Shown: piece by piece, positions 46,351-63,678 of the stretch
Layout of the letters: each line of letters begins with the position of its first letter
Numbering within the stretch: position 1 is the stretch's first letter
Source of the DNA: Euzebyales bacterium
Lineage (GTDB): Bacteria > Actinomycetota > Nitriliruptoria > Euzebyales > JAHELV01
Assembly: GCA_035461305.1 (NCBI GenBank)
Contig: DATHVN010000050.1
Location: forward strand, 801-64,800
Direction: 5' to 3'
DNA: 64,000 nt
Translations under genes and position numbers: made by a program
Notes under the pieces: model-generated
Database searches by the model: none
What the model was told of the DNA's origin: nothing
Seen by the model: the letters and a program-made list of their open reading frames with translations, nothing else

Positions 46351-46373
46351 CCAACTCCTTCGGAGCGTGCGCT

Positions 46374-46493
46374 ACGTGACCGCCCACCAATCTGGGGACG
46401 TCGTGCCGCGTATGCGTTGGGGGACGTCCCCACGTGACCGGCTCGCCGTGGTTTGGGGACGTGGTGCCGCGTATGCGTTGGGGGGCGTCCCCA
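46374..46493 (+). repeat. Two tandem ~58-62-nt repeat units, each containing a GGGGACG...CGTCCCC hairpin
   Basis: Unit 1 is 46374-46431 and unit 2 is 46432-46493. The hairpins are TGGGGACGTC..GACGTCCCCA (46393-46432, 10-bp stem) and TGGGGACG..CGTCCCCA (46454-46493). Confidence 0.8.
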
Positions 46494-46534
46494 ACGGAGT
46501 GGCTCTGGGGTCGCGGGAGGCGGTCGACATCTGA

Positions 46535-46548
46535 TACAACCGTTTGCA
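46535..46548. promoter_or_regulatory. LacI-type operator G
   Basis: TACAACCGTTTGCA. Its last base is the A of ATG 46548. Confidence 0.5.
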
Positions 46549-47720: not shown

Positions 47721-48856
47721 TGGCCACGCTCGGCTTCGCGCCTTCGGAGGACCCGTTCGTCGTCGAGCACGGCGGCTTCTACCGTCGCTGGCTGTCGATG
47801 ATCGACGACCTCGACGAGCTGCAGGCGACCGTCGCTCGGCTCGACGGGACCACCGAGGACCGCTGGGTGCCGGTGTGGCGTGAGGTCGGACAGCGCCACG
47901 AGGCCGAGGGCGACCGCCTGACCGACGAGGGGCGGTCCGACGACGCCCGCCGCGCCTACCTGCAGGCCAAGACCTACTACGCAATCGGGCGCTTCCCGGG
48001 CGAGATCACCCCGGTCAAGCGCGCCGTCAGCGACGACTGCGCCCGCGCCTACTGCAAGGCCAGCGGCTTCCTCGACCCGCCGCTCGAGGTCGTCGACGTC
48101 AGGCACCAGGGGCGGCCGATCACCTGCCACCTCCGCGTGCCCCACCACGCGTCGCCCGAGCACCCGGTCGCAGCCCTGCTGATCATGTGCGGCGCCGACG
48201 TGTTCAAGGAGGACCGGGGCTGGGCCTCGGAGTACGCGCTGGACCACGGCATGGCGTCGCTGGTCATGGACGGGCCGGGCACCGGCCAGAACCCGTTCCC
48301 GTGGGCACCCGAGTCGGTGTCGGCGTGGATCGCGGCGCTCGACCACCTGGCGGCGCGTCCTGAGGTAGACGCGTCCCGCATCGGCGCGTTCGGCATCAGC
48401 CGCGGTGGCTACTCGGTGCTGCAGCTCGCAGGGACGGTGCCGGACAGGGTGCGGGCCGTCGTCGCGAGCGCCGGCCACCCGTTCGGGTACCGCATGGACG
48501 ACGACGAGCTCGAGCGCTTCGTGGAGGTCCGCAACCAGCGGTCGGCGTGGCGGTTCGGCGAACCCGACGGGCCACCGTCGTTCGAAGCGACGTCGGTCCA
48601 GCAGGAGCGCGAGGACTTCAGCCGGTGGGCGCTGTCGGAGCTCGGTCTGGTCGACCGCATCACGCAGCCGGTGCTGATGATCAACGGTAAGCAGGACCAC
48701 CTGGCGCCCATCGGCAACATCTACTTCATGCTCGAGAGCGGTCCACCCACGGGACGCCAGGCCCGCGTCTACTCCGACGCGGGGCACTGCGCGTTCAAGC
48801 ACTTCGCCGAGTGGGCGCCGGCGTCGTTCGCGTGGCTGGCCGGTCACCTGGCCTGA
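47720..48856 (+). CDS. Alpha/beta hydrolase (FrsA/DUF1100-like esterase family)
   Basis: GISRGGY nucleophile elbow and DHLAP..GHCAF. ATG 47720 overlaps the upstream stop (TGATG). Confidence 0.7.
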   Translation: MATLGFAPSEDPFVVEHGGFYRRWLSMIDDLDELQATVARLDGTTEDRWVPVWREVGQRHEAEGDRLTDEGRSDDARRAYLQAKTYYAIGRFPGEITPVKRAVSDDCARAYCKASGFLDPPLEVVDVRHQGRPITCHLRVPHHASPEHPVAALLIMCGADVFKEDRGWASEYALDHGMASLVMDGPGTGQNPFPWAPESVSAWIAALDHLAARPEVDASRIGAFGISRGGYSVLQLAGTVPDRVRAVVASAGHPFGYRMDDDELERFVEVRNQRSAWRFGEPDGPPSFEATSVQQEREDFSRWALSELGLVDRITQPVLMINGKQDHLAPIGNIYFMLESGPPTGRQARVYSDAGHCAFKHFAEWAPASFAWLAGHLA

Positions 48857-48962
48857 CGCGCCGCGTGCGCCGGACGCCTGCGCTGGGCCCGGACGTCCAC
48901 CGGCACAGGACGGATGCGCCGGACGCGGAACAGCACGTCCTCACGATCCCGTAACGGTCGGG

Positions 48963-49950
48963 TTGTGCTTCGTGGTCGCCGACTTCGCCAGGGTGTTCTA
49001 CGTGCTCGACGGGGCGGGAGGCCTGAACCTGAGCGCGACCGGGCGCGTGCTCGTCGCGTGGTGCGGGTTCGCGTGGGTGCCGGCGCTCATCCTCATGACA
49101 GTGTTCCTGCCGCGCGTGTTCCATCGGGTCGGCCGCCGGGATGGCGCTGGTGGCTGGCCGGAGCGCTCGGCGTGGCAGCGCTGGGCATGTGGCTCGTCGC
49201 CGTGGGGATCGATGCGGTGACCAGGCCGGCGGATGAGATCCTCTACGGCCGATCGTGGATCGTCCTGCTCGCCCTGCTGATCGCGGGGGGTGGTGGGTGC
49301 CATGTCGTCCGTCGTGTTCCGCTACCACTGGGCGGGCGACGTCGAGCGGCGGCAGCTGCGGTGGGTGTCGTTCGCGTTCGCCGTGGTCTGTCTGGTGGTC
49401 GGCAGCTCCCTCACGTCACCGGCGCAGGTGGTGTTCAGCTCGGCCACGGGGCAGGCCCTGCTCGTCGGCCTCATGGGCCTGATCGGTGTCGATCGGGATC
49501 GCGATCACCCGGTACCGGCTGTACGAGATCGACCGCATCATCAGCCGGACTGCGTCGTACGTGTTGCTGACGGGTGTCCTGGCCGCCGTGTACGTCGTCG
49601 TCGTGGTCGCGCTCCAGCACTTCCTGGCGCCGGTCACGGGCCGGTCCGAGCTGGCGGTCGCTGGGGCGACGCTGACCGTGGCCGTGGCGTTCGGTCCCGC
49701 CCGCGCCCGCCTGCAGTCGGCGGTTGACCGGCGGTTCAACCGCGCCCGGTACGACGCGCAGCACACGGTCGATGCACTGCGCCTGCGGCTGCGGAACGAG
49801 GTGACCCTGGACCACGTGGCTGCCGTGCTCGTCGACGCGGTGCGCACGACGGTGCATCCCGCGGCGGTGTCGCTGTGGCTCAACCGCGCCACGGCTGCGC
49901 GGAACACGATGTCGGTTCGACCCGCACGGGACGACGACACCGGGCTGTGA
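48963..49950 (+). pseudogene. Multi-TM sensor-type membrane protein (N-terminal module common in actinobacterial sensor kinases), with three frameshifts and no kinase domain
   Basis: The segments lie in ORFs 48963.., 48914.., 49290.. and 49486.. (..ITRYRLYEIDRIISRTASYVLLTG..DRRFNRARYDAQHTVDAL..). The breaks are near 49110-49125, at the G6 run 49285-49290, and near 49478-49495. Confidence 0.6.
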
Positions 49951-50079
49951 CCGCTGCCGGCCATGGAGTGGGTCGCCACGTGCGAGACTTCACGGGCCTG
50001 GTTCCGCGAGCTTGGTCGTCTCGCTGGCGCTCGACCTCAACGGCCCAGGGACGGCTCCGCCGGACAGAGGACTTCCCGC

Positions 50080-50883
50080 ATGGGCGAGGTGAGCGGTGAG
50101 GACGTCGCGCGGTACCGGCGCGACGGGGCGATCTGCGTGCGTGGCGTGTTCGACGGCGACCAGATCACGGTCGTGCGTCGGATCGTCGATGCCGTGCTGG
50201 CCGACCCCGGCCCGCATGGCCAGACCGCGAGCCGGCCGGGCGAGCCGGCGTTCTTCGAGGACTTCTGCAACTGGCAGCGACACCCCGACCTGCGCGATGT
50301 GATCGATCGCGCGGGGCTGCCGGCGCTGTGCGGCCGGCTGATGGGGTCCGACGAGGTGCGCCTGTACCACGACCACGTGCTGGTCAAGGAGCCGGGCGCG
50401 CGCCAGGCGACGCCGTGGCACCAGGACCAGCCGTTCTACAACGTCGCCGGTCGGCAGAACATCAGCGCGTGGATCCCCGTCGACCCGGTGACCCGGACCA
50501 CGACGTTGGAGTTCGTCGCCGGCTCGCACGACGGCACCTGGTACCTGCCGACCACGTTCCTGGACCGGCAGGCCCAGTGGTTCCCGGAGGGCAGCCTGGC
50601 GCCCGTGCCCGACGTCGACCCCGCTACCGACCGGGTGCTGGGCTGGGCTCTGGAGCCGGGCGACGTGGTGCTGTTCCACATGCTCACCCTGCACGCCGCC
50701 GCGGGCAATGACATGCGCCACCCTCGCCGCGCGCTCTCGCTGCGGTTCCTGGGTGACGACGCGACGCACGCGCCGCGCCCATGGACCACGTCGCCGCCCT
50801 TTCACGGCCTCGACGAGGAGCTGCGGGCGGGGGCGCCGATGGATCACCCGCTGTTCCCGTTGCTGTGGACGGGGCGCCGGTAG
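50080..50883 (+). CDS. Phytanoyl-CoA dioxygenase (PhyH) family Fe(II)/2-oxoglutarate oxygenase
   Basis: ATPWHQDQPF, LTLHAAAGN, RRALSLRF. Confidence 0.85.
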   Translation: MGEVSGEDVARYRRDGAICVRGVFDGDQITVVRRIVDAVLADPGPHGQTASRPGEPAFFEDFCNWQRHPDLRDVIDRAGLPALCGRLMGSDEVRLYHDHVLVKEPGARQATPWHQDQPFYNVAGRQNISAWIPVDPVTRTTTLEFVAGSHDGTWYLPTTFLDRQAQWFPEGSLAPVPDVDPATDRVLGWALEPGDVVLFHMLTLHAAAGNDMRHPRRALSLRFLGDDATHAPRPWTTSPPFHGLDEELRAGAPMDHPLFPLLWTGRR

Positions 50884-51521
50884 TCCACCGCGTAGGCCGG
50901 CGCGTCGACGCCGGCGGGCGTGTGCTCGTCGGCGACGGGCGGCCCGATCGTCGTCGCGACCGGCAGCACGCCCGCCCACGAGCCGGCGTTGAGGTCGATC
51001 TCGTCGTCGACGGGTGGTCCGGTCCGCAGCTTCACCGATGCCTCCGACAGGTCGACCGCGACGATCGCCGTGGCCGCGGCCTCCTTGCGGTTGGGGTGGC
51101 GGACGTCGACCCACCGCCCCGGCACCAGGTGGTCGACGATCACCTCGAACGCGTGCCGGCGCTCGTCAGCACCGGTCACCGGGCGGGCCGTACCGAGCAC
51201 GACGGCCGAGCGATAGTTCATCGAGTGGTGCATCACCGAGCGTGCGAGCACCAGGCCGTCGAGCAGGGTGACCGTGACGCACACCGGCGCGCCGGTGGCG
51301 AGGTGGCGCATCATGCGGCTGCCGGTCGCGCCGTGGAGGTACAGCACGTCGCCGTCGCGACCATAGGCGGTCGGGATGACCACGGGGCTGCCGGCGTCGA
51401 CGAAACCGACATGGCAGACCAACCCCTCGTCGAGCACCTCGTACAGCGTCGCCGGGTCGTGTGCGGCACGCTGCGGGCTGCGGCGCACCCGAGTCCGCTG
51501 GGTCTGAGACAGCCCGACCAT
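50844..51521 (-). CDS. Pyridoxamine 5'-phosphate oxidase-family (FMN-binding split-barrel) protein
   Basis: LVCHVGFVDAGSPVVIPTAYGRDGDVLYLHGATGSRM.. Its 3' end overlaps the PhyH 3' end by 40 nt. Confidence 0.8.
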   Translation of the reverse strand: MVGLSQTQRTRVRRSPQRAAHDPATLYEVLDEGLVCHVGFVDAGSPVVIPTAYGRDGDVLYLHGATGSRMMRHLATGAPVCVTVTLLDGLVLARSVMHHSMNYRSAVVLGTARPVTGADERRHAFEVIVDHLVPGRWVDVRHPNRKEAAATAIVAVDLSEASVKLRTGPPVDDEIDLNAGSWAGVLPVATTIGPPVADEHTPAGVDAPAYAVDYRRPVHSNGNSG

Positions 51522-51550
51522 CGTGATCCCATCTGTTATAGTACAGATGA

Positions 51551-52870
51551 ATGACTGTACGTGAACAGTATAGGATCACCGGTCACACACGCCAGGAGAT
51601 CGTGGCTACCGTCGAGACCGGTGTGGAGTCGGGAGCGCTCGCGGCCGGCCTGGTGCTGCCCTCGGTGCGGACCCTCGCCGGCGATCTGGGGGTCAGCCCG
51701 GCGACGGTCGCCGCGGCGTACCGCGATCTGCGTGGTCGTGGCATCGTGACCAGCCGGCCCCGCAGCGGCGTGCAGGTTGCCCACCGCCCACCGCTGGAGG
51801 CCCCCTTGGTGCCGTCGGTGCCCGACGGCGTGGTCGATCTCGCGACGGGCAATCCCGATCCGATGCTGCTGCCGCCGCTGCCCGCGATCGCGCCACCCGA
51901 CCGACCGCGGCTGTACGGCGAGCCACCGGACCTGCCGGCGCTGCTCGATGCCGTCGGCGACGACCTCGAGGCCGACGGGGTGCGGACCGGCCACCTCGTG
52001 GTCACGAGCGGGGCGCTCGACGGCATCGACCGCCTGCTCGATGTGCACGTGCGCCGCGGCGACCGGGTCGCGGTCGAGGATCCGTGCTGGACGGGCACGC
52101 GCGACCTGCTGCGGCTGCGGGGGCTGGAGGCCGTCCCCGTCGCGGTCGACGACCGCGGCATGACGCCCGAGGCGCTGGAGGCGGCGCTGCGCGACGGTGT
52201 CGCGGCCATGTTGCTCACACCTCGCGCGCACAACCCGGCCGGTGCTGCACTGGACCCCGAGCGGGCAACGGCGTTGCGCGACCTGCTCGTCGACGCACCG
52301 GAGGTGGTGGTCATCGAGGACGACCACTCCGCCGTCGTCAGCGGTGCGGCTTACCACACGCTGTCGTCAGGCCGGCCGCGCTGGGCGGTGATGCGGTCGA
52401 TGGCCAAGGCGCTGGGCCCCGACCTTCGCGTCGCTGTGATGGCGGGGGATCGCCAAACCGTCGCGCGGGTCGCGGGCCGCCTGCGACTCGGCCCGGGGTG
52501 GGTCAGCACCATCCTCCAGCGGCTCGCCGCGACGATGCTCACCGACCCGGACGTGGTGGCCCTGCTTGCCGACGCGGCGCGGACCTACACGCGGCGTCGC
52601 GCCGCGCTGCTCGACGCCCTGCGCGACGTCGGGGTGGACGCCATGGGTCGGTCCGGGTTCAACGTCTGGGTGCCGGTGCCGCAGGAGGCACCACTGGTGG
52701 CCGGGATGGAACGCGCCGGCTGGGCGGTGCGCGCGGGCGAGCCGTTCCGGCTGGACGCCGGGCCGGGCCTGCGGATCACGAGCGCATCGCTGGATCCGCG
52801 TGACGCGGCACGGGTCGCCGGCGACCTGGCGGCACTTCTGCATGGCCCCGAGCGCACGCGCCTGGGATGA
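51551..52870 (+). CDS. MocR/PdxR-type regulator (GntR wHTH fused to an aminotransferase-like domain)
   Basis: LPSVRTLAGDLGVSPATVAAAYRDLRGRGIV plus a fold-type-I domain with SMAKALGPDLR (Lys). Confidence 0.85.
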   Translation: MTVREQYRITGHTRQEIVATVETGVESGALAAGLVLPSVRTLAGDLGVSPATVAAAYRDLRGRGIVTSRPRSGVQVAHRPPLEAPLVPSVPDGVVDLATGNPDPMLLPPLPAIAPPDRPRLYGEPPDLPALLDAVGDDLEADGVRTGHLVVTSGALDGIDRLLDVHVRRGDRVAVEDPCWTGTRDLLRLRGLEAVPVAVDDRGMTPEALEAALRDGVAAMLLTPRAHNPAGAALDPERATALRDLLVDAPEVVVIEDDHSAVVSGAAYHTLSSGRPRWAVMRSMAKALGPDLRVAVMAGDRQTVARVAGRLRLGPGWVSTILQRLAATMLTDPDVVALLADAARTYTRRRAALLDALRDVGVDAMGRSGFNVWVPVPQEAPLVAGMERAGWAVRAGEPFRLDAGPGLRITSASLDPRDAARVAGDLAALLHGPERTRLG

Positions 52871-52990
52871 CGACCACCGACGTCGCCCTGTCGCGGCCGA
52901 TAGCCGAGACGTTAGCCTACAAAGGTTGGGCACCCGGGTGACCGGTGAGCCCACCAGACGCAAGGCGGAGCCATCAAGAGGACACCGACG

Positions 52991-54001
52991 TTGCAGGAGG
53001 TCGCCGAGGCCGCCCAGGTGCACGTCTCGACGGTGTCTCGCGCGTTGGATCCGGCGAAGGCGTCGCTCGTCAGCGAGGCGACGCGCACACGCGTGGTGCA
53101 GGTCGCCGAGGAGCTCGGCTACCGCCCGCACCTCATCGCGAGCCAGCTGCGCCGCGGTCAGACCCAGACGGTCGGGGTGGTGGTGCCCGACCTCGGCAAC
53201 CCGCTGTACGCGCCGTTCGTGCGCGGTGTCGCGCACGCGCTCGACGAGCACGGCTACCTCCCCCTCGTCGCCGACACCCAGGATGACCACGACCGATTCC
53301 GACGGACGCTGCGCCACCTGTGGAGCCGCCGCGTCGACGCGGTCATCACGACGGCGGCCCGCATCTCCGACCGCGAGGCCGTGTGCGAGCTCGCCGACCA
53401 GGGCCTGCCGATCGTGCTCGCGGTCCGCACGCTGCCGGGCAGCGGCCTGCCGACCGTCGACCACGATGACACCGAAGGCGGGCGATTGGCGGCGCAGCAC
53501 CTGATCGAGCTCGGCCACCGGCGCGTGCTGCAGCTGAAGGGCCCACCGGACGTCACGCCGTTCCTGCACCGTGGGCACGGGTTCTCGACCGCGGTGGCGG
53601 CGGCCCGGTGCGAGGAGGTCGAGCCACCGGTCACGGCGACCCACCCGACGGTCGGCGAGGGTCGGCGGCTGATGCGGGCCGTGCTGGCCCTCCCCGGACC
53701 GCTGCCCACCGGCATGTTCGCCCAGAACGACCTGCTCGCGCTCGGCGCGCTGGAGGTGCTGCGCGACCGCGGCCTGTGGTGTCCCGACGACGTGTCGATG
53801 GTCGGCTACAACGACAACTTCTACGCGGCGCACGCGCGGCCGGCGATGACCGCGATCCGGCTTCCCGGCTATGACATCGGTCAGCTCGCCGGGGCGATGG
53901 CCATGGAGCACATCCGTGCGCCCAGCGGCGCGGAGACGTCGGTGTCGACTGCGCCCGTCCTGCTGGTCCGGGAGTCCGCGGGACCGCCGCCCGAACGTTG
54001 A
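52991..54001 (+). CDS. LacI-family transcriptional regulator (2)
   Basis: LQEVAEAAQVHVSTVSRALD. The TTG start is the only candidate after the in-frame stop at 52946, so it is uncertain. Confidence 0.8.
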   Translation: MQEVAEAAQVHVSTVSRALDPAKASLVSEATRTRVVQVAEELGYRPHLIASQLRRGQTQTVGVVVPDLGNPLYAPFVRGVAHALDEHGYLPLVADTQDDHDRFRRTLRHLWSRRVDAVITTAARISDREAVCELADQGLPIVLAVRTLPGSGLPTVDHDDTEGGRLAAQHLIELGHRRVLQLKGPPDVTPFLHRGHGFSTAVAAARCEEVEPPVTATHPTVGEGRRLMRAVLALPGPLPTGMFAQNDLLALGALEVLRDRGLWCPDDVSMVGYNDNFYAAHARPAMTAIRLPGYDIGQLAGAMAMEHIRAPSGAETSVSTAPVLLVRESAGPPPER

Positions 54002-54036
54002 CGCGGACGGCCCGCTGGCCTAGGCTGCGGACAGGG

Positions 54037-54050
54037 AGCAATCGATTGCA
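54037..54050. promoter_or_regulatory. LacI-type operator H
   Basis: AGCAATCGATTGCA, whose inner 12 bp form a perfect palindrome. It ends 11 nt before ATG 54062. Confidence 0.6.
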
Positions 54051-54061
54051 GAGGTACTGGG

Positions 54062-55312
54062 ATGTCGGAGTTCGCACAGACAGACATCGCTGCCCCGGGG
54101 GTCATGGCGGTCGACTGGGAGGAGCGGGTCAACTTCGATCGACTCCGCTCCTACCGCCTGGAACGGGCCCGGGAGGCGCTGGACAACTCGGACCTCGGGG
54201 CGGTCCTGTGCTTCGAGACGTCCAACATCCGGTATCTGACCGGGACGCACATCGGCTACTGGGCATGGAACAAGGCGGAGCGCTACTCGCTGCTGACCCG
54301 CACTGGTGAACCGTGGATCTGGGACTTCGGATCCGCCGCCAAGGCGCACCGCCTGCAGTGCCCCTGGCTCGACCCCGAGCACAGCCGCGGCGGCAACACG
54401 GGCCTGCAGGGTGCGATCGCGCCGAGGTCGGGCCTGCCGGAGCGCGCCGCACGCGAGATCAAGCAGGTGCTCGTCGACGAGGGTGTCGCCGACGAGGCGC
54501 TGGGGGTCGACATCGTCGAGATGCCGATCCTCGCGGCCCTCCAGGACCAGGGGATCACGGTCCGCGACGGCCAGCAGACCATGCTGGCGGCAAGGCAGAT
54601 CAAGAGCCCGGACGAGATCCTGCTGCTCAGCCAGGCGTGCGCGATGGTCGACGGCGTCTACCAGGACATCTACGAGGCGCTCAAGCCGGGCCTGCGCGAG
54701 AGCGACATCGTGGCGCTGGCCACCAAGCGCCTGATCGAGATGGGGTCCGAGCACGTCGAGGCGATCAACTCGATCGCCGGCGAGCGCTGCAGCCCGCACC
54801 CGCACGTCTACTCCGACCGGCTGATCCGCCCCGGCGACCAGGCCTACTTCGACATCATCCATGTCTTCAACGGCTATCGGACCTGCTACTACCGCACGTT
54901 CGCCGTGGGGCGGGCGACGTCGGCCCACCACGACGCCTACCGGAAGGCGCGCGAATGGATCGACGCCGCGATCGAGCTGGTCAAGCCCGGCGTCACCACC
55001 GACGAGATCGCGAGGGCCTGGCCCGAGGCACCCGAGTTCGGGTTCCCCGACGAGATGGAGGCGTTCGGCCTGCAGTTCGGCCACGGCGTGGGCGTCGGCC
55101 TCCACGAGCCGCCAATCATCAGCCGGCTCAACTCGCTGGACCACCCGATCGAGCTACAGGAGGGCATGGTCTTCGCGCTCGAGACCTTCTGCCCGGCCAC
55201 CGACGGCCATTCGGCCGCGCGGATCGAGGAGGAGGTCGTCTGCACCGCCGACGGGGCCAAGCTGCTGACGCTGTTCCCCGCCGAGGAGCTCGTGATCACC
55301 AACAGGTACTGA
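54062..55312 (+). CDS. M24-family metallohydrolase (creatinase/prolidase fold, possibly a non-peptidase member)
   Basis: FDIIHVFNGYRTCYYRTF, FGHGVGVGLHEPP, ALETF, RIEEEV. Confidence 0.8.
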   Translation: MSEFAQTDIAAPGVMAVDWEERVNFDRLRSYRLERAREALDNSDLGAVLCFETSNIRYLTGTHIGYWAWNKAERYSLLTRTGEPWIWDFGSAAKAHRLQCPWLDPEHSRGGNTGLQGAIAPRSGLPERAAREIKQVLVDEGVADEALGVDIVEMPILAALQDQGITVRDGQQTMLAARQIKSPDEILLLSQACAMVDGVYQDIYEALKPGLRESDIVALATKRLIEMGSEHVEAINSIAGERCSPHPHVYSDRLIRPGDQAYFDIIHVFNGYRTCYYRTFAVGRATSAHHDAYRKAREWIDAAIELVKPGVTTDEIARAWPEAPEFGFPDEMEAFGLQFGHGVGVGLHEPPIISRLNSLDHPIELQEGMVFALETFCPATDGHSAARIEEEVVCTADGAKLLTLFPAEELVITNRY

Positions 55313-55402
55313 GCACGCCAGGACAGGACCTGCGCCGACGGCTCCCCGCCCCCGAGGGAGCCGCGCGGCGCGGCGGATGCAGCGGTCGAGCGGAGCGAGA
55401 CG

Positions 55403-56440
55403 ATGACGTTCACGGACACGACACCACCCCAGGAACGGATGATCACCGAGGTCGGACAGCGCCCCGACAAGACGATGCGTCTGGCCTTGTACCGGCTGAT
55501 GGTGCGGATGCGCGCCTTCGAGGAACGCGCGTACAAGCTGTTCATGCGCGGGCTGGTCAAGGGCACCTCGCACCTGGGCATCGGCATGGAGGCCATCGCG
55601 GCCGGTGCCGCCATCGCCATGCGGGCGGACGACTGGACGTTCTGCACCTACCGCGGGCACAACCACACGCTCGCGCGCGGCGCCTCGATGGCCGCGCTGC
55701 TCGGCGAGCTGATGGGCCGCAGCAACGGTATCTGCGGCGGCAAAGGCGGGTCGATGCACCTGACCAGTGTCGAGCACGGCGCGATGGGGTCCTACGCGAT
55801 CGTAGGCGCCCACCTGCCGATCGCGGCGGGCGCGGCGTGGTCCGCGCAGGTGCGCGGCAGCGGCCAGGTGGCGGTGTGCTTCTTCGGTGACGGGGCGACC
55901 AACATCGGTGCGTTTCACGAGGCCCTGAACCTCGCGGTGGTCTGGCAGCTGCCGGTGGTCTTCGTCTGCGAGAACAACCTGTACATGGAGTACACGCCGA
56001 TCGGGTCGGTCACAGCTGTGCCGCACCCGGCAGCGGACCGCGCCGCCGCGTACGGCCTGGACTCGATCCTGCTCGACGGCAACAACGTCGAGGTGACCTA
56101 CGAGCACGTTGGCAAGGCCCTCACCAGGGCCCGTGAGGGTGGCGGGCCGACCCTGATCGAGGCCGAGACCTACCGCCACGGAGGGCACTCGCGCGCTGAC
56201 CCGGGCAAGTACCGGCCGCAGGAGGAGGTCGACTCGTGGCTGTCGCGGGACCCGATCCCCGCCTACCGGGAGCTGCTGATCTCCGACGGGGTCGACGCGT
56301 GGACGCTTGACAACATCGACGCCGACGCGGCGAGCGAGGTCGACGATGCGACAGAGCAGGCCCAGGCGGCGCCGCCGCCGGACCCGTCGGTGATCACCAC
56401 GGACGTGTGGGCGGATGGAGGGTCGGCATGGCGGAACTGA
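55403..56440 (+). CDS. TPP-dependent 2-oxoacid/acetoin dehydrogenase E1 alpha subunit
   Basis: FFGDGATNIGAFHEALNLA, YRHGGHS. Confidence 0.9.
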   Translation: MTFTDTTPPQERMITEVGQRPDKTMRLALYRLMVRMRAFEERAYKLFMRGLVKGTSHLGIGMEAIAAGAAIAMRADDWTFCTYRGHNHTLARGASMAALLGELMGRSNGICGGKGGSMHLTSVEHGAMGSYAIVGAHLPIAAGAAWSAQVRGSGQVAVCFFGDGATNIGAFHEALNLAVVWQLPVVFVCENNLYMEYTPIGSVTAVPHPAADRAAAYGLDSILLDGNNVEVTYEHVGKALTRAREGGGPTLIEAETYRHGGHSRADPGKYRPQEEVDSWLSRDPIPAYRELLISDGVDAWTLDNIDADAASEVDDATEQAQAAPPPDPSVITTDVWADGGSAWRN

Positions 56441-57399
56441 GCTACCGCGACGCGGTCGCGTACGGCCTGGCGCAGGAGATGCGCCGCGACGACCGCGTGT
56501 ACCTCATCGGCGAGGACATCGCCGACGCCGGCGGCGTGTTCAAGACGACGCCGGGGCTGGTCGAGGAGTTCGGTGACCGACGCGTGCGCGACACTCCGAT
56601 CTCCGAGGAGGCGATCACCGGCGCGGTGATGGGAGCCGCCATGACCGGCCTGCGGCCGGTTGCCGAGATCATGTTCTCGGACTTCTTCGCCACCTGCTGG
56701 GACATCGTCGCGAACCAGATCGCCAAGACCCGCTACATGACGGCAGGGCAGGTCACCCTGCCCCTGGTCGTCAAGACCGCCAACGGCGGGGGTCTGCGGT
56801 TCGGGGCCCAGCACTCCCAGAGCATCGAGAACTGGGCGATGATGATCCCCGGCCTGAAGGTGGTCGCGCCGTCGACGCCGGTGGACGTGGTCGGGCTGCT
56901 GGCGGCGTCCATCCGCGATGACGACCCGGTGATCTTCTTCGAACACAAGGGCCTGTACGCGTCGAAGGGGGAGATCCCCGACGGCGAGATCGTCGACGAG
57001 CTGGGCGCGGCCAAGGTGCTGCGCGAGGGCACCGACGTGACCATCGTCGCGCTGGCCGCGATGGTCCCGCGCGCGGTCGAGGCGGCCGACCGGCTTGCCG
57101 GCGAGGGCATCAGCGCCGAGGTCGTCGATGTGCGCAGCCTGGTCCCGCTCGACACCCAGACGCTCTGCGGGTCGGTGTCGAAGACCAGCAAGCTGGTCAC
57201 CGTCGAGGAGAACCCGCGGCTGTGTGGCTGGGGTGCCGAGCTTGTGTCGATCGTCGTCGGGGAGTGCTTCTGGAACCTCGACGGGCCACCGACGCGGGTC
57301 ACGACACCGCACGTCCCGTTGCCCAGCGCGGACGACCTCGAGGACCAGACCATCCCCACCGTGGACCGCATCGTCGAGGCGACGCGGAAGGTCATGTGA
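56428..57399 (+). CDS. 2-oxoacid/acetoin dehydrogenase E1 beta subunit
   Basis: IGEDIADAGGVFKTT.., RVRDTPISEEAI. Confidence 0.9.
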   Translation: MAELSYRDAVAYGLAQEMRRDDRVYLIGEDIADAGGVFKTTPGLVEEFGDRRVRDTPISEEAITGAVMGAAMTGLRPVAEIMFSDFFATCWDIVANQIAKTRYMTAGQVTLPLVVKTANGGGLRFGAQHSQSIENWAMMIPGLKVVAPSTPVDVVGLLAASIRDDDPVIFFEHKGLYASKGEIPDGEIVDELGAAKVLREGTDVTIVALAAMVPRAVEAADRLAGEGISAEVVDVRSLVPLDTQTLCGSVSKTSKLVTVEENPRLCGWGAELVSIVVGECFWNLDGPPTRVTTPHVPLPSADDLEDQTIPTVDRIVEATRKVM

Positions 57400-58561
57400 T
57401 GACTGCGCTTCCGCTGCCGGTCCCCACCGAGCTGCGGATCGGCGGGGAGCTGACCACGGCGCCGTCGGGCGGCAATCGGATCATTGCGATCCGCCAGCCG
57501 TCGGGGTCGCTGTGTTGGTGACGCCGTGGAACTTCCCGGCCGCGATGGCCACCCGCAAGATCGACCCCGCGCTCGAGGCGGGCTGCACGGTGGTGCTCAG
57601 GCCCGCGTCGGACACGCCGCGGATGGCGCTGGCGGTCGGTGACCTGCTCACCGAGGCGGGTGTTCCCCCGGGTGTGGTCAACGTGGTGCCGGCGCGGCGC
57701 TCGGGTCCGGTGGTCAATACGATGCTTGCGCACCCCGCGACGCGCAAGCTGTCGTTCACCGGCTCCACGGAGGTCGGGCGGATCCTGCTGAAGCAGGCGG
57801 CGTCGCGCGTCCTGGACTGCTCGATGGAGCTGGGAGGCAACGCGCCGTTCCTGGCCTTCGCCGACGCCGACCTCGTCGCCGCCGTCGAAGGTGCGCTGGT
57901 CGCCAGGATGCGCAACGCCGGGGAGTCGTGCATCGCCGCGAACCGCTTCCTGGTCGAAGCGCCCGTCGCCGACGACTTCTCCGTCCGGTTCGCCCGGCGC
58001 ATGGCCGCGCTGCTCGTCGACCCGGGCATCGACCTCCACAGCGACGTGGGGCCGATGGTCAACGAGGGCGCGCGCGACGACATCGCCCCGCTGGTCGACA
58101 CCGCGGTCGGCGGCGGTGCGGCGGTGCGCGCCCGCGCCGAGGTGCCCGACCGCCGCGGCTGGTTCTATGCGCCGACCATGCTGGCCGACGGCGCGCCCGA
58201 CAGCGACATCCTGGATCACGAGTTCTTCGGCCCAGTCGTCCCGGTCGTGGCGTTCGACGACGAGGACGGGGCCGTCGTAGCGGCCAACGCCACCGAGGAC
58301 GGCCTGGCCACCTGTCTGTACACCGGCGACCTCGCCCGTGGCCTGCGGGTGTCCGAGGCGCTTGAGACCGGCATGGTCGGGCTCGACCGCGGGTTCATCT
58401 CTGACCGTGCAGCGCCGTTCGGCGGCGTCAAGCAGGAACCGCAGCGAGAGCGCGCGGCGGGGGTGACGCATGTCAGTGCCCGCGGCGGCGTAGGCCGCGA
58501 GGGCGGCCACGACGGCCTGCTGCAGTTCCTGGAGACCAAGTACATCGCGGCGGACTCGTGA
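57399..58561 (+). pseudogene. Succinate-semialdehyde/aldehyde dehydrogenase family gene with an internal deletion of about 115 codons, one frameshift and a 48-nt foreign in-frame insertion
   Basis: The N-terminus MTALPLPVPTELRIGGELTTAPSGGN joins directly to RIIAIRQP. The frame then changes to VGVAVLVTPWNFPAAM..ELGGNAP..NAGESCIAANR... The C-terminus reads GGVKQ[EPQRERAAGVTHVSAR]GGVGREGG. Confidence 0.8.
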
Positions 58562-58588
58562 GGCACGAGGTCTGCGCCCAGCGCCGCT

Positions 58589-58622
58589 CCCTGCCGCCGA
58601 ACGCCCCCTCACGGCGGCAGGG
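58589..58622 (+). terminator. Terminator-like hairpin after the ALDH pseudogene
   Basis: CCCTGCCGCCG (58589-58599) pairs with CGGCGGCAGGG (58612-58622). An alternative stem is ACGCCCCCT/AGGGGGCGT. Confidence 0.45.
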
Positions 58623-58697
58623 GGCGTGCGCACCCCGTGAGCTCCGACGACCACCGAAGGCCACGCGACCCGCGACCACGATGATCGCCGCCGTCGC

Positions 58698-59585
58698 GTG
58701 AGCGGGGTGGCGCTCGGCGCGGTCGCCGGCATCGGCTTCGGGCTGTTCCAGGTCGTCAACCGACGGGTCAACGCCGTCGCCGACATCTACCTGGCGACAT
58801 TCGGGCTGATGGCCGTCAGCACTGCTGTGCTCGTGGCGATCTCGGCGCTGACCGAGGACCCGGGCCAACTGCGCGGTGCGCCGCCGCTCGCGCTGGCGCT
58901 GTTCGCGTCGGCGGGGTTCGTGCACTTCTTCCTGGGGTGGACATTCCTCGGGCTCAGCCAGCAGCGGCTCGGGGCGGCCCGGACCGGGGCGCTGCTGGGA
59001 TCGGTCCCGCTGGTCGGTGCGGTGCTCGCCGTGGTCGCCCTCGGCGAGCCGTTGACGCTGAGCACCCTCGTCGCGCTGCTCGTCGTGGTCGCCGGCGTCG
59101 TCGCGATCTCGCTGCGGCCACGCGGGGCGCCGGGCGGCCCCACCGCGGTCTCCCTGCCGGGGCTCGTGTTCGCCTTGGCGACGGCCCTGTGCTGGTCGAT
59201 CTCGCCGCTGCTGATCCGCGTCGGGCTCGACCGCTTCGCCTCGCCGATCCTCGGCGTGACGGTCGGGATCGCCACGACCACGCTCGCCTACGGGGGGGTG
59301 GTGGCCGTCGTACGGCGGCGCAGGCACGGTCCACAGGAGCGTCCGCCACTGGCGCTGATGACCCTGGCCGGCACCCTGGTCGCGCTGTCGATCTGGTGGC
59401 AGTGGACGGCGTTCCAGCTCGCGCCGATCGCCGTGGTGCTCGCCGTCCTGCAGCTGTCGGCGCCGGTCGTCGCGATCGTCTCGCCGCTGGTGTCACGCGA
59501 CCCGCTGGAGCGAGGGGGCGTGCTGCTGTGGGTCGGGCTGGTGTGCGTGCTCTCCGGCGCATTGACGTTCCTGCTCGGCGGCTGA
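58698..59585 (+). CDS. EamA/DMT-family transporter
   Basis: About 10 hydrophobic segments and a duplicated EamA-like architecture. GTG start. Confidence 0.8.
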   Translation: MSGVALGAVAGIGFGLFQVVNRRVNAVADIYLATFGLMAVSTAVLVAISALTEDPGQLRGAPPLALALFASAGFVHFFLGWTFLGLSQQRLGAARTGALLGSVPLVGAVLAVVALGEPLTLSTLVALLVVVAGVVAISLRPRGAPGGPTAVSLPGLVFALATALCWSISPLLIRVGLDRFASPILGVTVGIATTTLAYGGVVAVVRRRRHGPQERPPLALMTLAGTLVALSIWWQWTAFQLAPIAVVLAVLQLSAPVVAIVSPLVSRDPLERGGVLLWVGLVCVLSGALTFLLGG

Positions 59586-59605
59586 GCGGACGGGGATCGT
59601 GCCTT

Positions 59606-59815
59606 CCGGGGAGCCGTGCGCCGATGACGGGCGCACGCCTCCCCGGAGCGCGCGGCGGCGCGTCTGCGGGGAGCCGCTGCGCGGATGGTGGGCGTTCGCC
59701 TCGCCGGAGCGCGCGGCGGCGCGTCGGTGGCGAGCCGCTGATGGTGGGCGTTCGCCTCGCCGGAGCGCGCGGCGGCGCCTCTGTGGGGAGTCAGCGCCCT
59801 CCTTGTGGTGGGTTG
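59606..59815 (+). repeat. Tandem array of 3 and a fraction copies of a 56-61-nt GC-rich repeat; the first copy forms a 17-bp hairpin
   Basis: Units start at 59606, 59664, 59725 and 59781 (the last is partial). The shared core is GATGGTGGGCGTTCGCCTCGCCGGAGCGCGCGGCGGCGC. The first unit reads CCGGGGAGCCGTGCGCC-GATGACG-GGCGCACGCCTCCCCGG. Confidence 0.8.
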
Positions 59816-59947
59816 ACCCCCCAGGGTGTGGCCTGCGCGGCGGGACAGGGGTCGGCACGGCCATTGGGACTGGACCTGTTCAGTGACACTGCACTACTCT
59901 GCTGCCGAGGATGCATTGAGGGGCGCAGCCCCGGAGGAGAGCCGACC

Positions 59948-61315
59948 ATGGGTGACCGGATCGTGGTGCGCGACGGGTTCGTCATGACGATGGACCCTGA
60001 CCTTGGAGATCTGCCGAGGGCCGATGTGCTGATCGAGGACGGGGCGATCGCCGCCGTCGGCCCCGACCTCGGCGCCGAGGAGGCCGAGGTCATCGAGGCC
60101 ACCGGCTGCATCGTCATGCCCGGCTTCATCGACAGCCACCGCCACACCTGGGAGGCAGCGATCCGGGGCTGCGCGCCCGACGCGACGCTCGACGACTACT
60201 TCGGCGCGGTGCTCGACTCGTTCGCACCCCACTACCGCGCTGAGGATGTCTACAACAGCAACCTGGCGGGGTCGCTGGAGTGCCTCAACGCCGGCATCAC
60301 GACGCTGGTCGACTGGTCGCACATCAACAACACGCCCGAGCACCCGGACGCGGCCATCGCTGCCCTCAAGGAGACGGGCATCCGTGCGCAATACGCCTAC
60401 GGCAGTGCGAACACGTCGATGAACGACTACTGGAACGGCAGCACGATCGCGGTACCTGCCGACGATGTCCGCCGCATCCGCGACACATACTTCTCCTCTG
60501 ATGACGGCCTGCTGACAATGGCCCTGGCGACCCGAGGCCCCACCTTCTGCGTCGACGACGTCGTCCGCGCAGAGTGGCACCTGGCGCGGGAACTGAACCT
60601 TCCGGTCACTGTGCACGTCGCGATGGCGAGCGCCGGTCGGTTCGGGATGGTCAAGCACCTCGCGCAACTGGACCTGCTGTACGAGGGCACGACGTACATC
60701 CACTCGTGCTACCTGAGCGAGGAGGAGTGGAGGATGGTCGCCGACAGCGGCGGCACGGTCTCGATTGCGCCGCAGGTCGAGATGACGATGGGTCACGGGT
60801 GGCCGCCCACCGGCACGTGCTATCAGCACGGGCTCCGACCGGGCCTGTCCGTCGACGTGGTCACGACCACTCCGGGGGACCTCTTCACGCAGATGCGCGC
60901 CGCGTTCGCCGGTGAGCGGGTGCAGGTCAACGCGGTGGCGTGGAAGGACGCCGTGCCGATCCCCGAGTCGACGGTCACGGCCCGCAACATGGTCGAGATG
61001 GCCACGATCAACGGCGCACACGTGGCGCAGGTCGAGGACCGCACCGGTTCGCTGACCGTCGGCAAGCAGGCCGACGTCGTCGTGATCGATGGCACCGCCA
61101 TCAACACGACGCCACTGTTCGACCCGTACGCGACGGTGGCGCTGTGCGCCGACGTGTCGAACGTCCGTGACGTCATCATCGGCGGTGTGGTCCGCAAGCG
61201 CGACGGTGCGCTCGTCGGCGACGTGGACACGGCCCGCCGCAAGGTCAACGAGTCCCGTGACTACCTGGTCAGCCGTGTCCCACGGCAGCCCACGTGGACC
61301 GCTGTCGAACGCTGA
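59948..61315 (+). CDS. Metal-dependent amidohydrolase-superfamily protein (deaminase/chlorohydrolase-like subgroup)
   Basis: PGFIDSHRHTWE (HxH), VHVA, 455 aa. RBS GGAGGAGA. Confidence 0.85.
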   Translation: MGDRIVVRDGFVMTMDPDLGDLPRADVLIEDGAIAAVGPDLGAEEAEVIEATGCIVMPGFIDSHRHTWEAAIRGCAPDATLDDYFGAVLDSFAPHYRAEDVYNSNLAGSLECLNAGITTLVDWSHINNTPEHPDAAIAALKETGIRAQYAYGSANTSMNDYWNGSTIAVPADDVRRIRDTYFSSDDGLLTMALATRGPTFCVDDVVRAEWHLARELNLPVTVHVAMASAGRFGMVKHLAQLDLLYEGTTYIHSCYLSEEEWRMVADSGGTVSIAPQVEMTMGHGWPPTGTCYQHGLRPGLSVDVVTTTPGDLFTQMRAAFAGERVQVNAVAWKDAVPIPESTVTARNMVEMATINGAHVAQVEDRTGSLTVGKQADVVVIDGTAINTTPLFDPYATVALCADVSNVRDVIIGGVVRKRDGALVGDVDTARRKVNESRDYLVSRVPRQPTWTAVER

Positions 61316-61328
61316 TCGGCAGGCCTCG

Positions 61329-62231
61329 ATGACGCGCAACCATCTGGTCGTCGGTCCGGCCGATGCCGACTACGTCGTCCCCGCCGAGCTCGCGGGGCAC
61401 TGCTCGGGGTTCCGGCGCTGGGCGGCGATCGACGAGCACAGCCCGTCGGTGCACATGCGGTTCTCGGTGTGCGAGCTCGAGCCCGGCGGGCAGGTCGACT
61501 GGCACGTCCGCTCGTTCGAGGAGAGCTTCTACATCGTCGACGGCCAGGTCGTGTGCGACACCGACGAGGGCGGGTTCCTGCTCGAGCCGGGCGACTACGG
61601 CGTCGTCGGCGTCGGCGCGCCACACGCGTGGCGCAACGTCGGCGACGCACCAGCGCGGTGGGCCGAGATGTCCGCCCCGCAGCCTCGGGCGGACAGGCGC
61701 CACACGTTCGTGGTGCCCGACAGGGAACGCGCAACCCCGCTGCGCCCCGACGTCCGTGATCCGCGCACACGCTCGATCGGCCACGTGTCGCCAGAGAACA
61801 TGGAGGTCGACAAGCAGACCCAGGAGCACCTGGCCGTCACGGCGAGCATGCGCACGGCGCTGCTGGTCTACAGCGGCATCACGGTCAAGATGATGGTGGA
61901 CTCCGACCTCGGCGCCGATCTGTCGACGATGTTCATGGTGCAGTACGTACCCCGCGGGTTCACAGGGCCCCACGACCACCCCCTCGAGGAGGCCTACATG
62001 ATCCTCGAGGGCGAGGTCGACGCCGAGTTCGACGGCGAGCCGTACCGCATGACGGTGGGCGACATCGCGGTCGCCGGCGTGGGCTGTCCCCACGCGTTCT
62101 CGAACCCCGGCGACGGCCCGGTGCGTTGGCTCGAGACCCAGGCTCCGCAACCGCCGGGGCGCCACTCGTACCGGTTCGCCCGTGACTGGACGTACCTGAC
62201 CGAGGCGCTCGGCGGTGGCGCAGACGGATGA
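61329..62231 (+). CDS. Bicupin protein
   Basis: It has two cupin modules: GGQVDWHVRSFEESFYIVDG..GAPHAW and GPHDHPLEEAYMILEGE..GCPHAF. Confidence 0.75.
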   Translation: MTRNHLVVGPADADYVVPAELAGHCSGFRRWAAIDEHSPSVHMRFSVCELEPGGQVDWHVRSFEESFYIVDGQVVCDTDEGGFLLEPGDYGVVGVGAPHAWRNVGDAPARWAEMSAPQPRADRRHTFVVPDRERATPLRPDVRDPRTRSIGHVSPENMEVDKQTQEHLAVTASMRTALLVYSGITVKMMVDSDLGADLSTMFMVQYVPRGFTGPHDHPLEEAYMILEGEVDAEFDGEPYRMTVGDIAVAGVGCPHAFSNPGDGPVRWLETQAPQPPGRHSYRFARDWTYLTEALGGGADG

Positions 62232-62241
62232 GGAACGGACG

Positions 62242-62943
62242 ATGACCGACGCAGCAGTGGTCGTGATCGGCGGCAGCTCCGGGCTGGGCATGGAGGTTGC
62301 GCGGCACTACGCAGACGCGGGGCGGCGGGTCGTCGTGACGAGCCGCGACGCGGATCGCGCCAACGACGCCGCGACCGCGGTGGGGGGCGAGACGACGGGG
62401 ATCGTGCTTGATCTGGTCGAGACGGACCGGATCGGCGAGCGCCTCGCGGAGATCGGACCGGTGGCGCTTCTGGTGATGAGCGCGATCGACCGCGACGAGA
62501 ACACCGTGCGCAGTTTCGACGTCGCACGCGCGACCCACCTCACGACGCTGAAGCTGGTCGGGTACGCCGAGGTCATCCACGCCCTGGTGGACCGCCTGGA
62601 TCACGACAGCTCCATCGTGCTGTTCGGCGGGCTTGCCAAGAGCCGGCCCTACCCGGGGTCGACGACGGTCACGACCGTCAACGGTGGCATCACGACCATG
62701 GTCCACACGCTCGCGGTCGAGCTGGCGCCGATCCGGGTCAACGCTCTGCATCCCGCGATCGTGGGCGACAGCCCCTACTGGAAGGACAAGCCCGCCGCGG
62801 TGCTCGAGGGCTTCCGCTCACGCACCCCGCTCGGTCGCCTGGTCACCATGGCCGACGTCGTGCACGCCACGGTCTTTCTGCTCGAGAACCGGTCCATGAC
62901 CGGGGCCAACGTCAACATCGACGGCGGCTGGCTGCTGATGTAG
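62242..62943 (+). CDS. Atypical SDR-family oxidoreductase
   Basis: It has the GGSSGLG Rossmann motif. The usual YxxxK position reads TTVNGGITTMV, so no catalytic Tyr/Lys pair is visible by eye. Confidence 0.8.
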   Translation: MTDAAVVVIGGSSGLGMEVARHYADAGRRVVVTSRDADRANDAATAVGGETTGIVLDLVETDRIGERLAEIGPVALLVMSAIDRDENTVRSFDVARATHLTTLKLVGYAEVIHALVDRLDHDSSIVLFGGLAKSRPYPGSTTVTTVNGGITTMVHTLAVELAPIRVNALHPAIVGDSPYWKDKPAAVLEGFRSRTPLGRLVTMADVVHATVFLLENRSMTGANVNIDGGWLLM

Positions 62944-63585
62944 GCCCGCGCCGTCGGGCGTCTCGTCGTTCCGGCCGAGGATGAACCAGACGGCCTGCGC
63001 CGGTTCGGTCCCGGGGTTTGACAAGCGGTGGACGGTCGTCGACGCGAAGGCGATCGAGTCGCCTACGCACAGGTCGGTGACCTCGTCGCCGACCTCGACG
63101 CGCAGTGTGCCGCTGACGACGTAGCCCCACTCCCGGCCCTTGTGTCGGTGCTGGGTGCCCTCGGGCACCGAGGCGCTGCCGGGTGCGTACACCAGTTGGA
63201 GGAAATCGACGCCGGCCTCGGACGCGCCGGTCAGGCGCTCCCACAGGACGCCCGGCGCCAGCTCGACCGACGCGCGGGCGCCGGCGCGCTGGACGCAGAC
63301 GTTGTGCGTCCCCATGCCGGGCGGCTCGGCCGGGCCGGTGAGCTGGGCGCCGAACAGCAGCTCGTCGACCGACAGGCCCAGCTCGACCGCCAGCGCGTAC
63401 AGCGTGTTGACCGACGGCCGGACCTTGGCCGTTTCGATCTGGGAGATGAGACTCGGCGAGACCCCGATGCGCGCGGCCAAGGTGCGCACCGTCATCTGCC
63501 TGGTCACACGCGCATGCCGCAGCCCCTCGCTGACGTCGGTCCAGACCGCGGCCAGGGCGGCATCGACGTCGGGGGAGTCAGCCAT
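62818..63585 (-). CDS. XRE-family HTH regulator with a C-terminal cupin domain
   Basis: MTVRTLAARIGVSPSLISQIETAK (HTH), then HRHKGREWGYVVSGTL..GDSIAF..VHR (cupin). The 3' tail overlaps the convergent SDR gene by 126 nt, so the true stop may be affected by a sequence error. Confidence 0.75.
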   Translation of the reverse strand: MADSPDVDAALAAVWTDVSEGLRHARVTRQMTVRTLAARIGVSPSLISQIETAKVRPSVNTLYALAVELGLSVDELLFGAQLTGPAEPPGMGTHNVCVQRAGARASVELAPGVLWERLTGASEAGVDFLQLVYAPGSASVPEGTQHRHKGREWGYVVSGTLRVEVGDEVTDLCVGDSIAFASTTVHRLSNPGTEPAQAVWFILGRNDETPDGAGLHQQPAAVDVDVGPGHGPVLEQKDRGVHDVGHGDQATERGA

Positions 63586-63678
63586 CGGTTGGTCGCCGTT
63601 CCTCGTGCTGCACCACCGTCGGGAGCAGTGACGTTCCGGCCAACGGTAGCGCAACACCCGGCGTGACCGTCCCGTCCC

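Follow-up and report, generated by a model that had tools for sequence, protein, structure and literature searches.

In the 64-kb stretch of DNA analysed here (the window), a short piece of a PhyH-family gene recurs, inverted, inside an ALDH gene 7.7 kb away, which raises the question of how the piece came to be there and whether it does anything for the organism. On the plus strand, 58433-58491 (CAGGAACCGCAGCGAGAGCGCGCGGCGGGGGTGACGCATGTCAGTGCCCGCGGCGGCGT) agrees with the reverse complement of 50693-50751 at all but three of its 59 positions (56/59), the mismatches falling at 58460/50724, 58466/50718 and 58476/50708. Recomputing the match returned the coordinates, identity and distance given in the initial annotation, whose translations were also correct: the donor segment is translated as HAAAGNDMRHPRRALSLRFL, the ALDH frame across the patch as GGVKQEPQRERAAGVTHVSARGGVGREG. 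When the left flank is included, both a repeat search and a self-BLAST of the window lengthen the match to 70 nt, with 91% identity (58422-58491 against 50693-50762), with E = 2e-21 for the pair in self-BLAST. The pair is the top inverted repeat of the window, with arms 7659 nt apart, and the next best is 51 nt long at 71%. With paralogues and tandem repeats set aside, it is also the sole strong repeat in the 64-kb self-comparison, and that comparison revealed no second ectopic copy event of this kind in the window. Given the composition of the window (72% G+C, pairing probability 0.2975), the chance expectation for a match of at least 56/59 is about 8e-17. Coordinates of the features discussed below are collected in Table 1.

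Table 1. Donor, recipient, copied patch, junctions and lesions, in window coordinates
Feature	Position	Strand	Basis
PhyH-family (phytanoyl-CoA dioxygenase / ectoine-hydroxylase-related) gene, donor, intact (likely extent)	50080..50883	+	Pfam and full-length homologues
Donor segment, including the 11-nt flank resembling the ALDH primer end	50693..50762	+	Gapless alignment to PhyH orthologues
ALDH (succinate-semialdehyde dehydrogenase type) gene, recipient, pseudogene	57399..58561	+	Pfam, tblastn, alignment, lesions; gene absent or about 55 nt in relatives
Junction of 327-nt in-frame deletion (109 codons)	57433..57452	+	Lies between imperfect 20-nt direct repeats TGCGSATCGRCGGSGMGCTG
1-nt deletion, CAGCCGGTC to CAGCCGTC, shifting the frame	57497..57501	+	Alignment; at least four independent runs
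Left (probable priming) junction, native ALDH GCGGCGTCAAGCAG	58422..58435	+	11/14 to donor flank GCGTCGTCACCCAG, including terminal CAG
Inverted PhyH-segment copy in the ALDH pseudogene	58433..58491	+	56/59 to donor; alignment with intact orthologues L001 and L002
Right (return) junction GCGGCGT	58485..58491	+	GCGGC common to donor, window and orthologous ALDH AGCGGCCTG

The window comes from a metagenome-type assembly, and short repeats can mislead assemblers, so the pattern could in principle reflect an assembly or binning artefact in which a chimeric join was made through a shared k-mer. However, each 31-mer across the patch belongs to the ALDH copy alone, because the copy carries three mismatches and its longest exact run in common with the donor is 27 nt. 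The locus is also present in Logan contigs of several soil metagenomes, which belong to different studies. A contig of 2541 nt (run X1) covers 57300-58700 without gaps and with 4 SNPs, another of 984 nt (X2) covers 57745-58700, and two shorter ones of 392 nt (X11) and 151 nt (X9) each cross both junctions. Gapless contigs spanning the junctions come from at least four other soil-metagenome studies, with few SNPs between them; they share the two other ALDH lesions of Table 1, and the frameshift is present in at least four independent runs. Exact-pattern scans of JGI metagenome contigs gave 0 matches to the left junction and 0 to the donor/copy core. The assembly chimera that the initial annotation had allowed for is contradicted by these independent assemblies, which carry both junctions, and we regard the chance of an artefact as negligible. 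The sampled strains differ by about 0.3% and the patch is present in all of them; on the evidence of these contigs, it is real and fixed in the species.

Intact relatives show what the patch replaced. The nearest intact ALDH homologues, P0004 (78% identity) and P0005 (74%), are 480 aa long, are labelled succinate-/glutarate-semialdehyde dehydrogenase by JGI, and read GGVKQSGLGREGGHDGLLQFLETKYIAA at this site. In the window the patch interrupts GGVKQ-SGL-GREG, and the motif reads GGVKQ-EPQRERAAGVTHVSARGGV-GREGG. Alignment with the two nearest intact orthologues places the new sequence at 58436-58491 (56 nt), bounded by CAG and AGGCC; in its place the orthologues carry only the 8 nt AGCGGCCT. 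The DNA at the site is GTCAAGCAG / AGCGGCCT / GGGCCGCGAG in the orthologues and GTCAAGCAG / GAACC...GCGGCGT / AGGCCGCGAG in the window. Eight ancestral nucleotides have been swapped for 56, and the alignment with L001 and L002 bears out the net gain of 48 nt first proposed. The insertion had also been predicted to be lineage-specific, and comparison with orthologues agrees: when the GGxKQSGxGREG motif was scored, insert residues occurred in the 16 insert columns of 0/111 full-length ALDH homologues, and 0/27 ALDH-bearing loci from a GTDB scan, all of them ungapped, had an insert at the same site. The nearest sister lineages cannot be scored for the insert, since that part of ALDH is deleted there.

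The direction of copying can be read from the donor gene, which likely spans 50080-50883. It matches PF05721 over model positions 1-213 of 213 (E = 4.5e-24) and has full-length homologues at 86-90% identity. The donor segment, which presumably encodes the distal His that binds iron in the PhyH family and the strand carrying the Arg that binds 2-oxoglutarate, is native to this gene, because it aligns without gaps to the PhyH genes of relatives; its Asn codon (50707-50709) is kept in 7/7 of them. With PhyH intact and the segment native there, PhyH is the source and ALDH the recipient. The PhyH ORF is still full length, meaning that the donor was copied rather than cut and pasted.

We found closer relatives through their PhyH and E1-beta proteins. 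Among them are L089, a 45.5-kb contig with about 90% nucleotide identity that is syntenic over window positions 45216-63671, and L083, which is about 85% identical. The copy agrees with its own donor at 56/59 positions, against 50/59 for the PhyH genes of L089 and L086, 49/59 for those of L083-85 and 48/59 for that of L088. Donor and L089 differ at eight sites, and at these the copy carries the donor base six times, neither base twice and the L089 base never. Because the copy favours its own donor in this way, the template was, as far as these comparisons can tell, the local PhyH gene, at a time when the L089 lineage had already split off.

The mismatches indicate what happened to the copy afterwards. 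At 50708 the donor's A, in the Asn codon, is found in 7/7 outgroup sequences, so it is the copy that mutated after the event. The copy's base at 50718 is found in no relative, and 50724 is a third position, saturated among relatives (T/C/G/A). The copy has drifted by two to three bases since it was made. Two neutral changes in 59 nt amount to about 3%, with a very wide error. This is of the same order as the roughly 0.03 substitutions per site that our own arithmetic from the branch dN/dS gives, as a rough figure, for the neutral time since ALDH lost constraint. Set against the diversity among strains the event is old, and set against the L089 split it is young.

The initial annotation described an in-frame insertion inside an ALDH gene, but the recipient is dead. 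In tblastn with P0004, the ALDH start MTALPLPVPTELRIGG is joined straight to homologue residue ~121, across the 327-nt deletion, and the frame changes ahead of VGVAVLVTPWNFP, at the 1-nt deletion. An ORF from the native ATG at 57399, which overlaps the E1-beta stop codon, stops after 40 codons. The ALDH Pfam match (PF00171) begins only at model position 126, and a full ORF would run to about 480 residues. Over the remaining 337 alignable codons we counted 13 private replacements at columns with a conservation of 98% or more; among the 111 homologues such replacements number 3 at most, and the median is 0. They include VVLKPAS to VVLRPAS and the terminal W to S; the catalytic Cys and the Glu of ELGGN are still present. 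The structural lesions and the private changes at invariant sites are the decisive evidence, and from them we read the recipient as a pseudogene. Branch dN/dS is mildly raised (about 0.30 in the window and 0.21 in relatives, by our own, pairwise-based arithmetic) and GC3 in the remnant, at 0.926, is not lowered; the pseudogene is therefore young relative to the divergence from L001. The 109-codon deletion, the frameshift and the 13 replacements rule out a functional succinate-semialdehyde dehydrogenase. A functional loop inserted in frame is likewise rejected for a pseudogene, and since the recipient is one, the preserved frame (a one-in-three accident) has no protein meaning.

The neighbours of ALDH have been lost as well. 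L001, a metagenome contig 80-86% identical to the window, has the order PhyH-LacI-M24-E1alpha-E1beta-ALDH-ADH-ABC transporter-cupin-EamA-amidohydrolase, and the window keeps this order minus about 6.6 kb, from ADH to cupin. In L089 and six further contigs (L090-L095), only about 266 nt separate E1-beta from EamA. What is left of ALDH there is 8 nt from its start and ~47 nt from its end, including the stop; a stub of ~45 nt from the 5' end of ADH comes next, followed by shared spacer. L083 is without any ALDH. As the sisters keep only the ends of ALDH, or none of it, and the window is without the ADH-cupin block, the clade as a whole is, on this comparison, losing ALDH and the genes beside it through successive deletions, the window retaining the largest remnant. 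The patch sits in a gene that the clade is discarding, and is without consequence for the organism.

This setting bears on whether the patch itself could be functional, either as a 59-nt antisense RNA against PhyH mRNA or by supporting inversion of the 7.66-kb segment. The remnant follows M24-E1alpha-E1beta on the same strand, its ATG overlapping the E1beta stop, and is probably co-transcribed with them, judging from this arrangement; PhyH, too, is part of this conserved cluster, and the patch is fixed in all sampled strains. However, with a strain diversity of only ~0.3%, fixation is uninformative on selection. The pairing is already eroded by two to three substitutions, to a longest exact run of 27 nt, and sister lineages have deleted the whole region without replacement. 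There were no inversion junctions among the matches listed for the contigs. We find a function of either kind scarcely credible.

How, then, was the patch made? Its two junctions give the clearest indications. On the left, orthologues carry GG[CT]GTCAAGCAG right up to the junction, which makes this side native ALDH. Its last three bases are identical between ALDH GCGGCGTCAAGCAG and the donor flank GCGTCGTCACCCAG, and over the flank the similarity is 8/11 (P ~0.004). On the right, the shared GCGGC would become a match of 7-8 nt if the ancestral codon was GTG or GTA and not CTG. The next base, 58492, is A in the window and G in both the donor and the orthologues, and the A is probably a later substitution, to judge by that comparison. 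The initial annotation placed homology with the donor on both sides of the insertion; the CAG on the left holds, as part of the 11/14 similarity, but on the right the full GGCGGCGT does not, since the orthologues show only GCGGC (5 nt; 6/8 over AGCGGCCT/GGCGGCGT).

From the pairing probability of 0.2975, our own arithmetic puts the chance of a junction ambiguity of at least 3 nt at about 0.05 and of at least 5 nt at about 0.007. Short homology is found at both ends, as the initial annotation had it, but it is less of a signature than was proposed, because the 14-nt primer end has matches of the same quality at some 18 further inverted sites in the window. Given so many equally good sites, the junction microhomology permitted the event and did not set the choice of donor.

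The copy is inverted, its donor is intact, both of its ends show short homology and few recipient bases have been replaced; together these features point to primed ectopic synthesis followed by return. We conclude that the patch is very probably a neutral scar of microhomology-primed templated insertion, left by break repair or a template switch and without function. During repair or replication of ALDH, a 3' end at ...GCGGCGTCAAGCAG would have left its own template and paired imperfectly (11/14, its last three bases matched) with a site in PhyH, on the same plus strand and 7.7 kb upstream. Extension by about 56 nt, then return to ALDH via GCGGC(GT), would have turned 8 nt into 56 nt and left the donor untouched. 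With the recipient already or soon dispensable, the scar would not have been selected against, and could have become fixed and diverged by two to three substitutions.

The version we favour, as an inferred one, starts with a double-strand break in ALDH and long 5' resection reaching PhyH. The plus-strand 3' tail (...CAAGCAG) would snap back onto its own strand and pair with 5'-CTGGGTGACGACGC-3' at 50749-50762, copy leftwards to 50693 and rejoin at GCGGC, the ends being joined through microhomology. This geometry requires a donor to the left of the break and in inverted orientation, and both are observed; in the same scheme, the stronger homology lies at the priming junction. The initial annotation had proposed a template switch or microhomology-mediated repair. 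A lineage-specific, templated copy with an intact donor upholds the general proposal, but the sequence cannot choose between the two. Nor does a single scar reveal which enzymes acted or what lesion began the process. A reach of 7.7 kb is far beyond classical quasipalindrome switching and the usual Pol-theta templates, and the priming homology, not being unique, does not account for the choice of PhyH as donor.

Two other routes are rejected on the structure of the patch. RecA-dependent ectopic gene conversion would need flanking homology on the scale of the RecA minimal processing segment, some 25-30 bp on each side, and here the similarity reaches no further than 14 nt on the left side and 8 nt on the right side. 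As for a mobile element (IS, MITE or REP), the sequence has just two copies in the window, one of them a conserved coding sequence, and no duplication flanks the patch, in line with the initial remark that mobile-element features are absent.

The switch could instead have occurred at a replication fork, in an event of the FoSTeS or long-range quasipalindrome type, with the nascent plus strand jumping to the lagging-strand template at PhyH, copying about 56 nt and returning. FoSTeS/MMBIR is replicative template switching with minimal base pairing, and a fork switch predicts the same inverted copy, homology at both switch points and intact donor as break repair does. A weak positive GC skew of the plus strand would suit a rightward fork, but is not significant. 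The lagging-strand template is, however, normally single-stranded only over about the length of an Okazaki fragment, and known bacterial quasipalindrome events span tens to hundreds of nucleotides. Here the single-stranded template would have to lie 7.66 kb behind the fork, or 6.1 kb in the L001 arrangement. Because a template 6-8 kb behind the fork is needed, we infer that the fork route ranks somewhat below break repair, and treat it as a tentative possibility. Template-switch mutagenesis between inverted repeats is established in E. coli (Lovett laboratory, PMC7202029, PMC6357072). In the Ripley model of quasipalindrome switching described there, as in our case, a nascent strand copies an inverted, partly complementary sequence and returns, and the arms become identical. 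The arms in those events are, however, tens of nucleotides apart in a single hairpin or fork and few bases are changed, whereas 56 nt have been copied here between arms 7.66 kb apart. A classical quasipalindrome mutation is rejected for arms separated by 7659 nt whose prior similarity was only 11/14 and 6/8.

Closer in its host and in the size of the insertion is the break repair observed in Streptomyces ambofaciens, where I-SceI break scars contain own-genome insertions of 30, 42 and 83 bp, of which two originated close to the break (Hoff et al. 2018, PMC5869714). Both cases concern a high-GC actinobacterium and short own-genome patches (56-59 nt here), and microhomologies are marked in the S. 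ambofaciens scars. Those scars are, however, experimental and ascribed to NHEJ, whereas the present one is natural, old and fixed, with an inverted donor 7.7 kb off. The 30-83-bp pieces in them (PMC5869714) are what gives some credit to NHEJ capture, the ligation by Ku/LigD of a free double-stranded PhyH fragment into the break. Yet both patch ends coincide with recipient homology, which is expected of primed synthesis and unneeded for ligation, and the donor gene shows no loss. Such a capture is in our judgement very unlikely.

We also considered RNA-templated repair, in which the plus-strand 3' end would anneal to PhyH mRNA and a polymerase capable of reverse transcription would extend it. 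Relative to that mRNA the patch is antisense, like a cDNA primed from the left break end, and the 7.7-kb distance would become irrelevant. A bacterial group II intron-like RT is reported to act in microhomology-mediated end joining (bioRxiv 10.1101/2022.03.14.484287). But snap-back on DNA predicts the same orientation, no RT gene was seen in the window, and no run was identified as RNA. Templating by mRNA is, all told, highly improbable.

In eukaryotes, Pol-theta insertions are generally shorter than 25 bp and copied from sequence flanking the break (PMC12426944). Eukaryotic TMEJ and template switching (PMC12426944, PMC7954356) resemble primed synthesis at this locus in that minimal pairing primes ectopic synthesis, the extended end comes off and re-anneals at a second microhomology, and the donor is kept. 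They differ in that bacteria are without Pol theta and that 56 nt were here copied from 7.7 kb away. Altogether, the patch belongs to the known class of microhomology-mediated templated insertions, and is unusual only in how far away its template lies (7.7 kb) and how much was copied (56 nt). Its surroundings are equally familiar. Bacterial pseudogenes undergo deletional decay, and the recipient shows a repeat-bounded internal deletion, a frameshift, loss of neighbours and sisters nearly without the gene; a templated insertion, by contrast, adds sequence and is a rarer kind of lesion.

The locus offers a well-documented natural example of such an insertion, in which donor, recipient, junctions, polarity of the later changes, fixation and sister state are all resolved. 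It indicates that a free 3' end in an actinobacterium can find and copy an opposite-strand template several kilobases off. Pooled with similar scars, the patch could help to establish how far error-prone repair reaches in unculturable bacteria and how much homology it needs. A wider speculation, which we think unlikely to hold, is that inverted patches at kilobase range are footprints of a general prokaryotic break-repair route, in which long resection is followed by fold-back several kilobases off, a few paired bases prime synthesis and microhomology serves to rejoin the ends, with scars surviving mainly in dead genes. If this were true, the pseudogenes of uncultured bacteria and archaea would record the reach of the pathway, its homology needs and perhaps its use of RNA templates. 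At a more practical level, the locus calls for caution in annotation, as the 347-residue "ALDH" called here is, by the lesions described above, a pseudogene fragment.

Within 57399-57530, the ALDH remnant, a succinate-semialdehyde dehydrogenase-type pseudogene, carries an in-frame deletion of 327 nt between imperfect 20-nt direct repeats and, near 57500, a frameshift caused by a 1-nt deletion. Both lesions are common to contigs of independent metagenomes. At its other end, the final codon reads TCG (Ser) in the window, with C at position 58557. Run X11 has the same base, while contigs of the soil-metagenome runs X1, X2, X3, X4 and X9 have G, giving TGG (Trp) and matching intact orthologues. 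The C/G difference is a strain polymorphism within the ALDH pseudogene.

We further compared the region 3' of ALDH with related contigs. Relative to L001, a metagenome contig 80-86% identical to the window, ∼6.6 kb are absent after ALDH (window 58562-58697; L001:7112-13700), comprising the genes for a zinc ADH, a branched-chain-type ABC transporter and a cupin. In the sister contigs L089-L095 (∼90% identical), the ADH start is reduced to a ∼45-nt stub and only 8 + 47 nt of ALDH are left (L089:10972-11239), and L083 (∼85% identical) is without ALDH. These losses look like stepwise deletional decay across the clade. The loss of ALDH and ADH contrasts with the conservation of the genes upstream (54062-57399), which encode an M24 peptidase/creatinase-like protein and TPP-dependent E1 alpha and E1 beta, and which are intact and well conserved (dN/dS of 0.13-0.20 against L001). 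No E2 or E3 gene was found near them.

Upstream of PhyH, the phytanoyl-CoA dioxygenase-family gene, ∼1.2 kb (48857-50070) hold three overlapping plus-strand ORFs in different frames, for which Pfam returned no match. The counterpart of this segment is missing in L086 and L089, both ∼90% identical, which have gaps of 76 nt and 74 nt there, respectively. This stretch is probably another remnant of a decaying gene. The PhyH gene of L086 (L086:3315-3992) is called at just 225 aa and ends in a TGA out of frame with respect to the window's gene, which suggests a frameshift in that lineage or a sequencing error. Between PhyH and LacI (50844-52870) lie a minus-strand Pyridox_ox_2 gene, whose 3' end overlaps that of PhyH, and a gene for a MocR-type GntR-aminotransferase regulator. 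The pair occurs at this place in the window, L083, L086 and L089, not in L001 (L001:1034-1136); the LacI gene is missing from L083.

Finally, the window contains two tandem arrays of GC-rich units. The spacer 59616-59826, at one of them, has no alignment to L089.

Tandem arrays in the window, with copy structure and location.
Feature	Position	Copies	Spacing	Identity	Location
Tandem array	59619-59790	three, 55 nt	56-61 nt	84-93%	between EamA and amidohydrolase gene
Tandem array	46393-46505	two, 52 nt	61 nt	87%	after ABC ATPase genes
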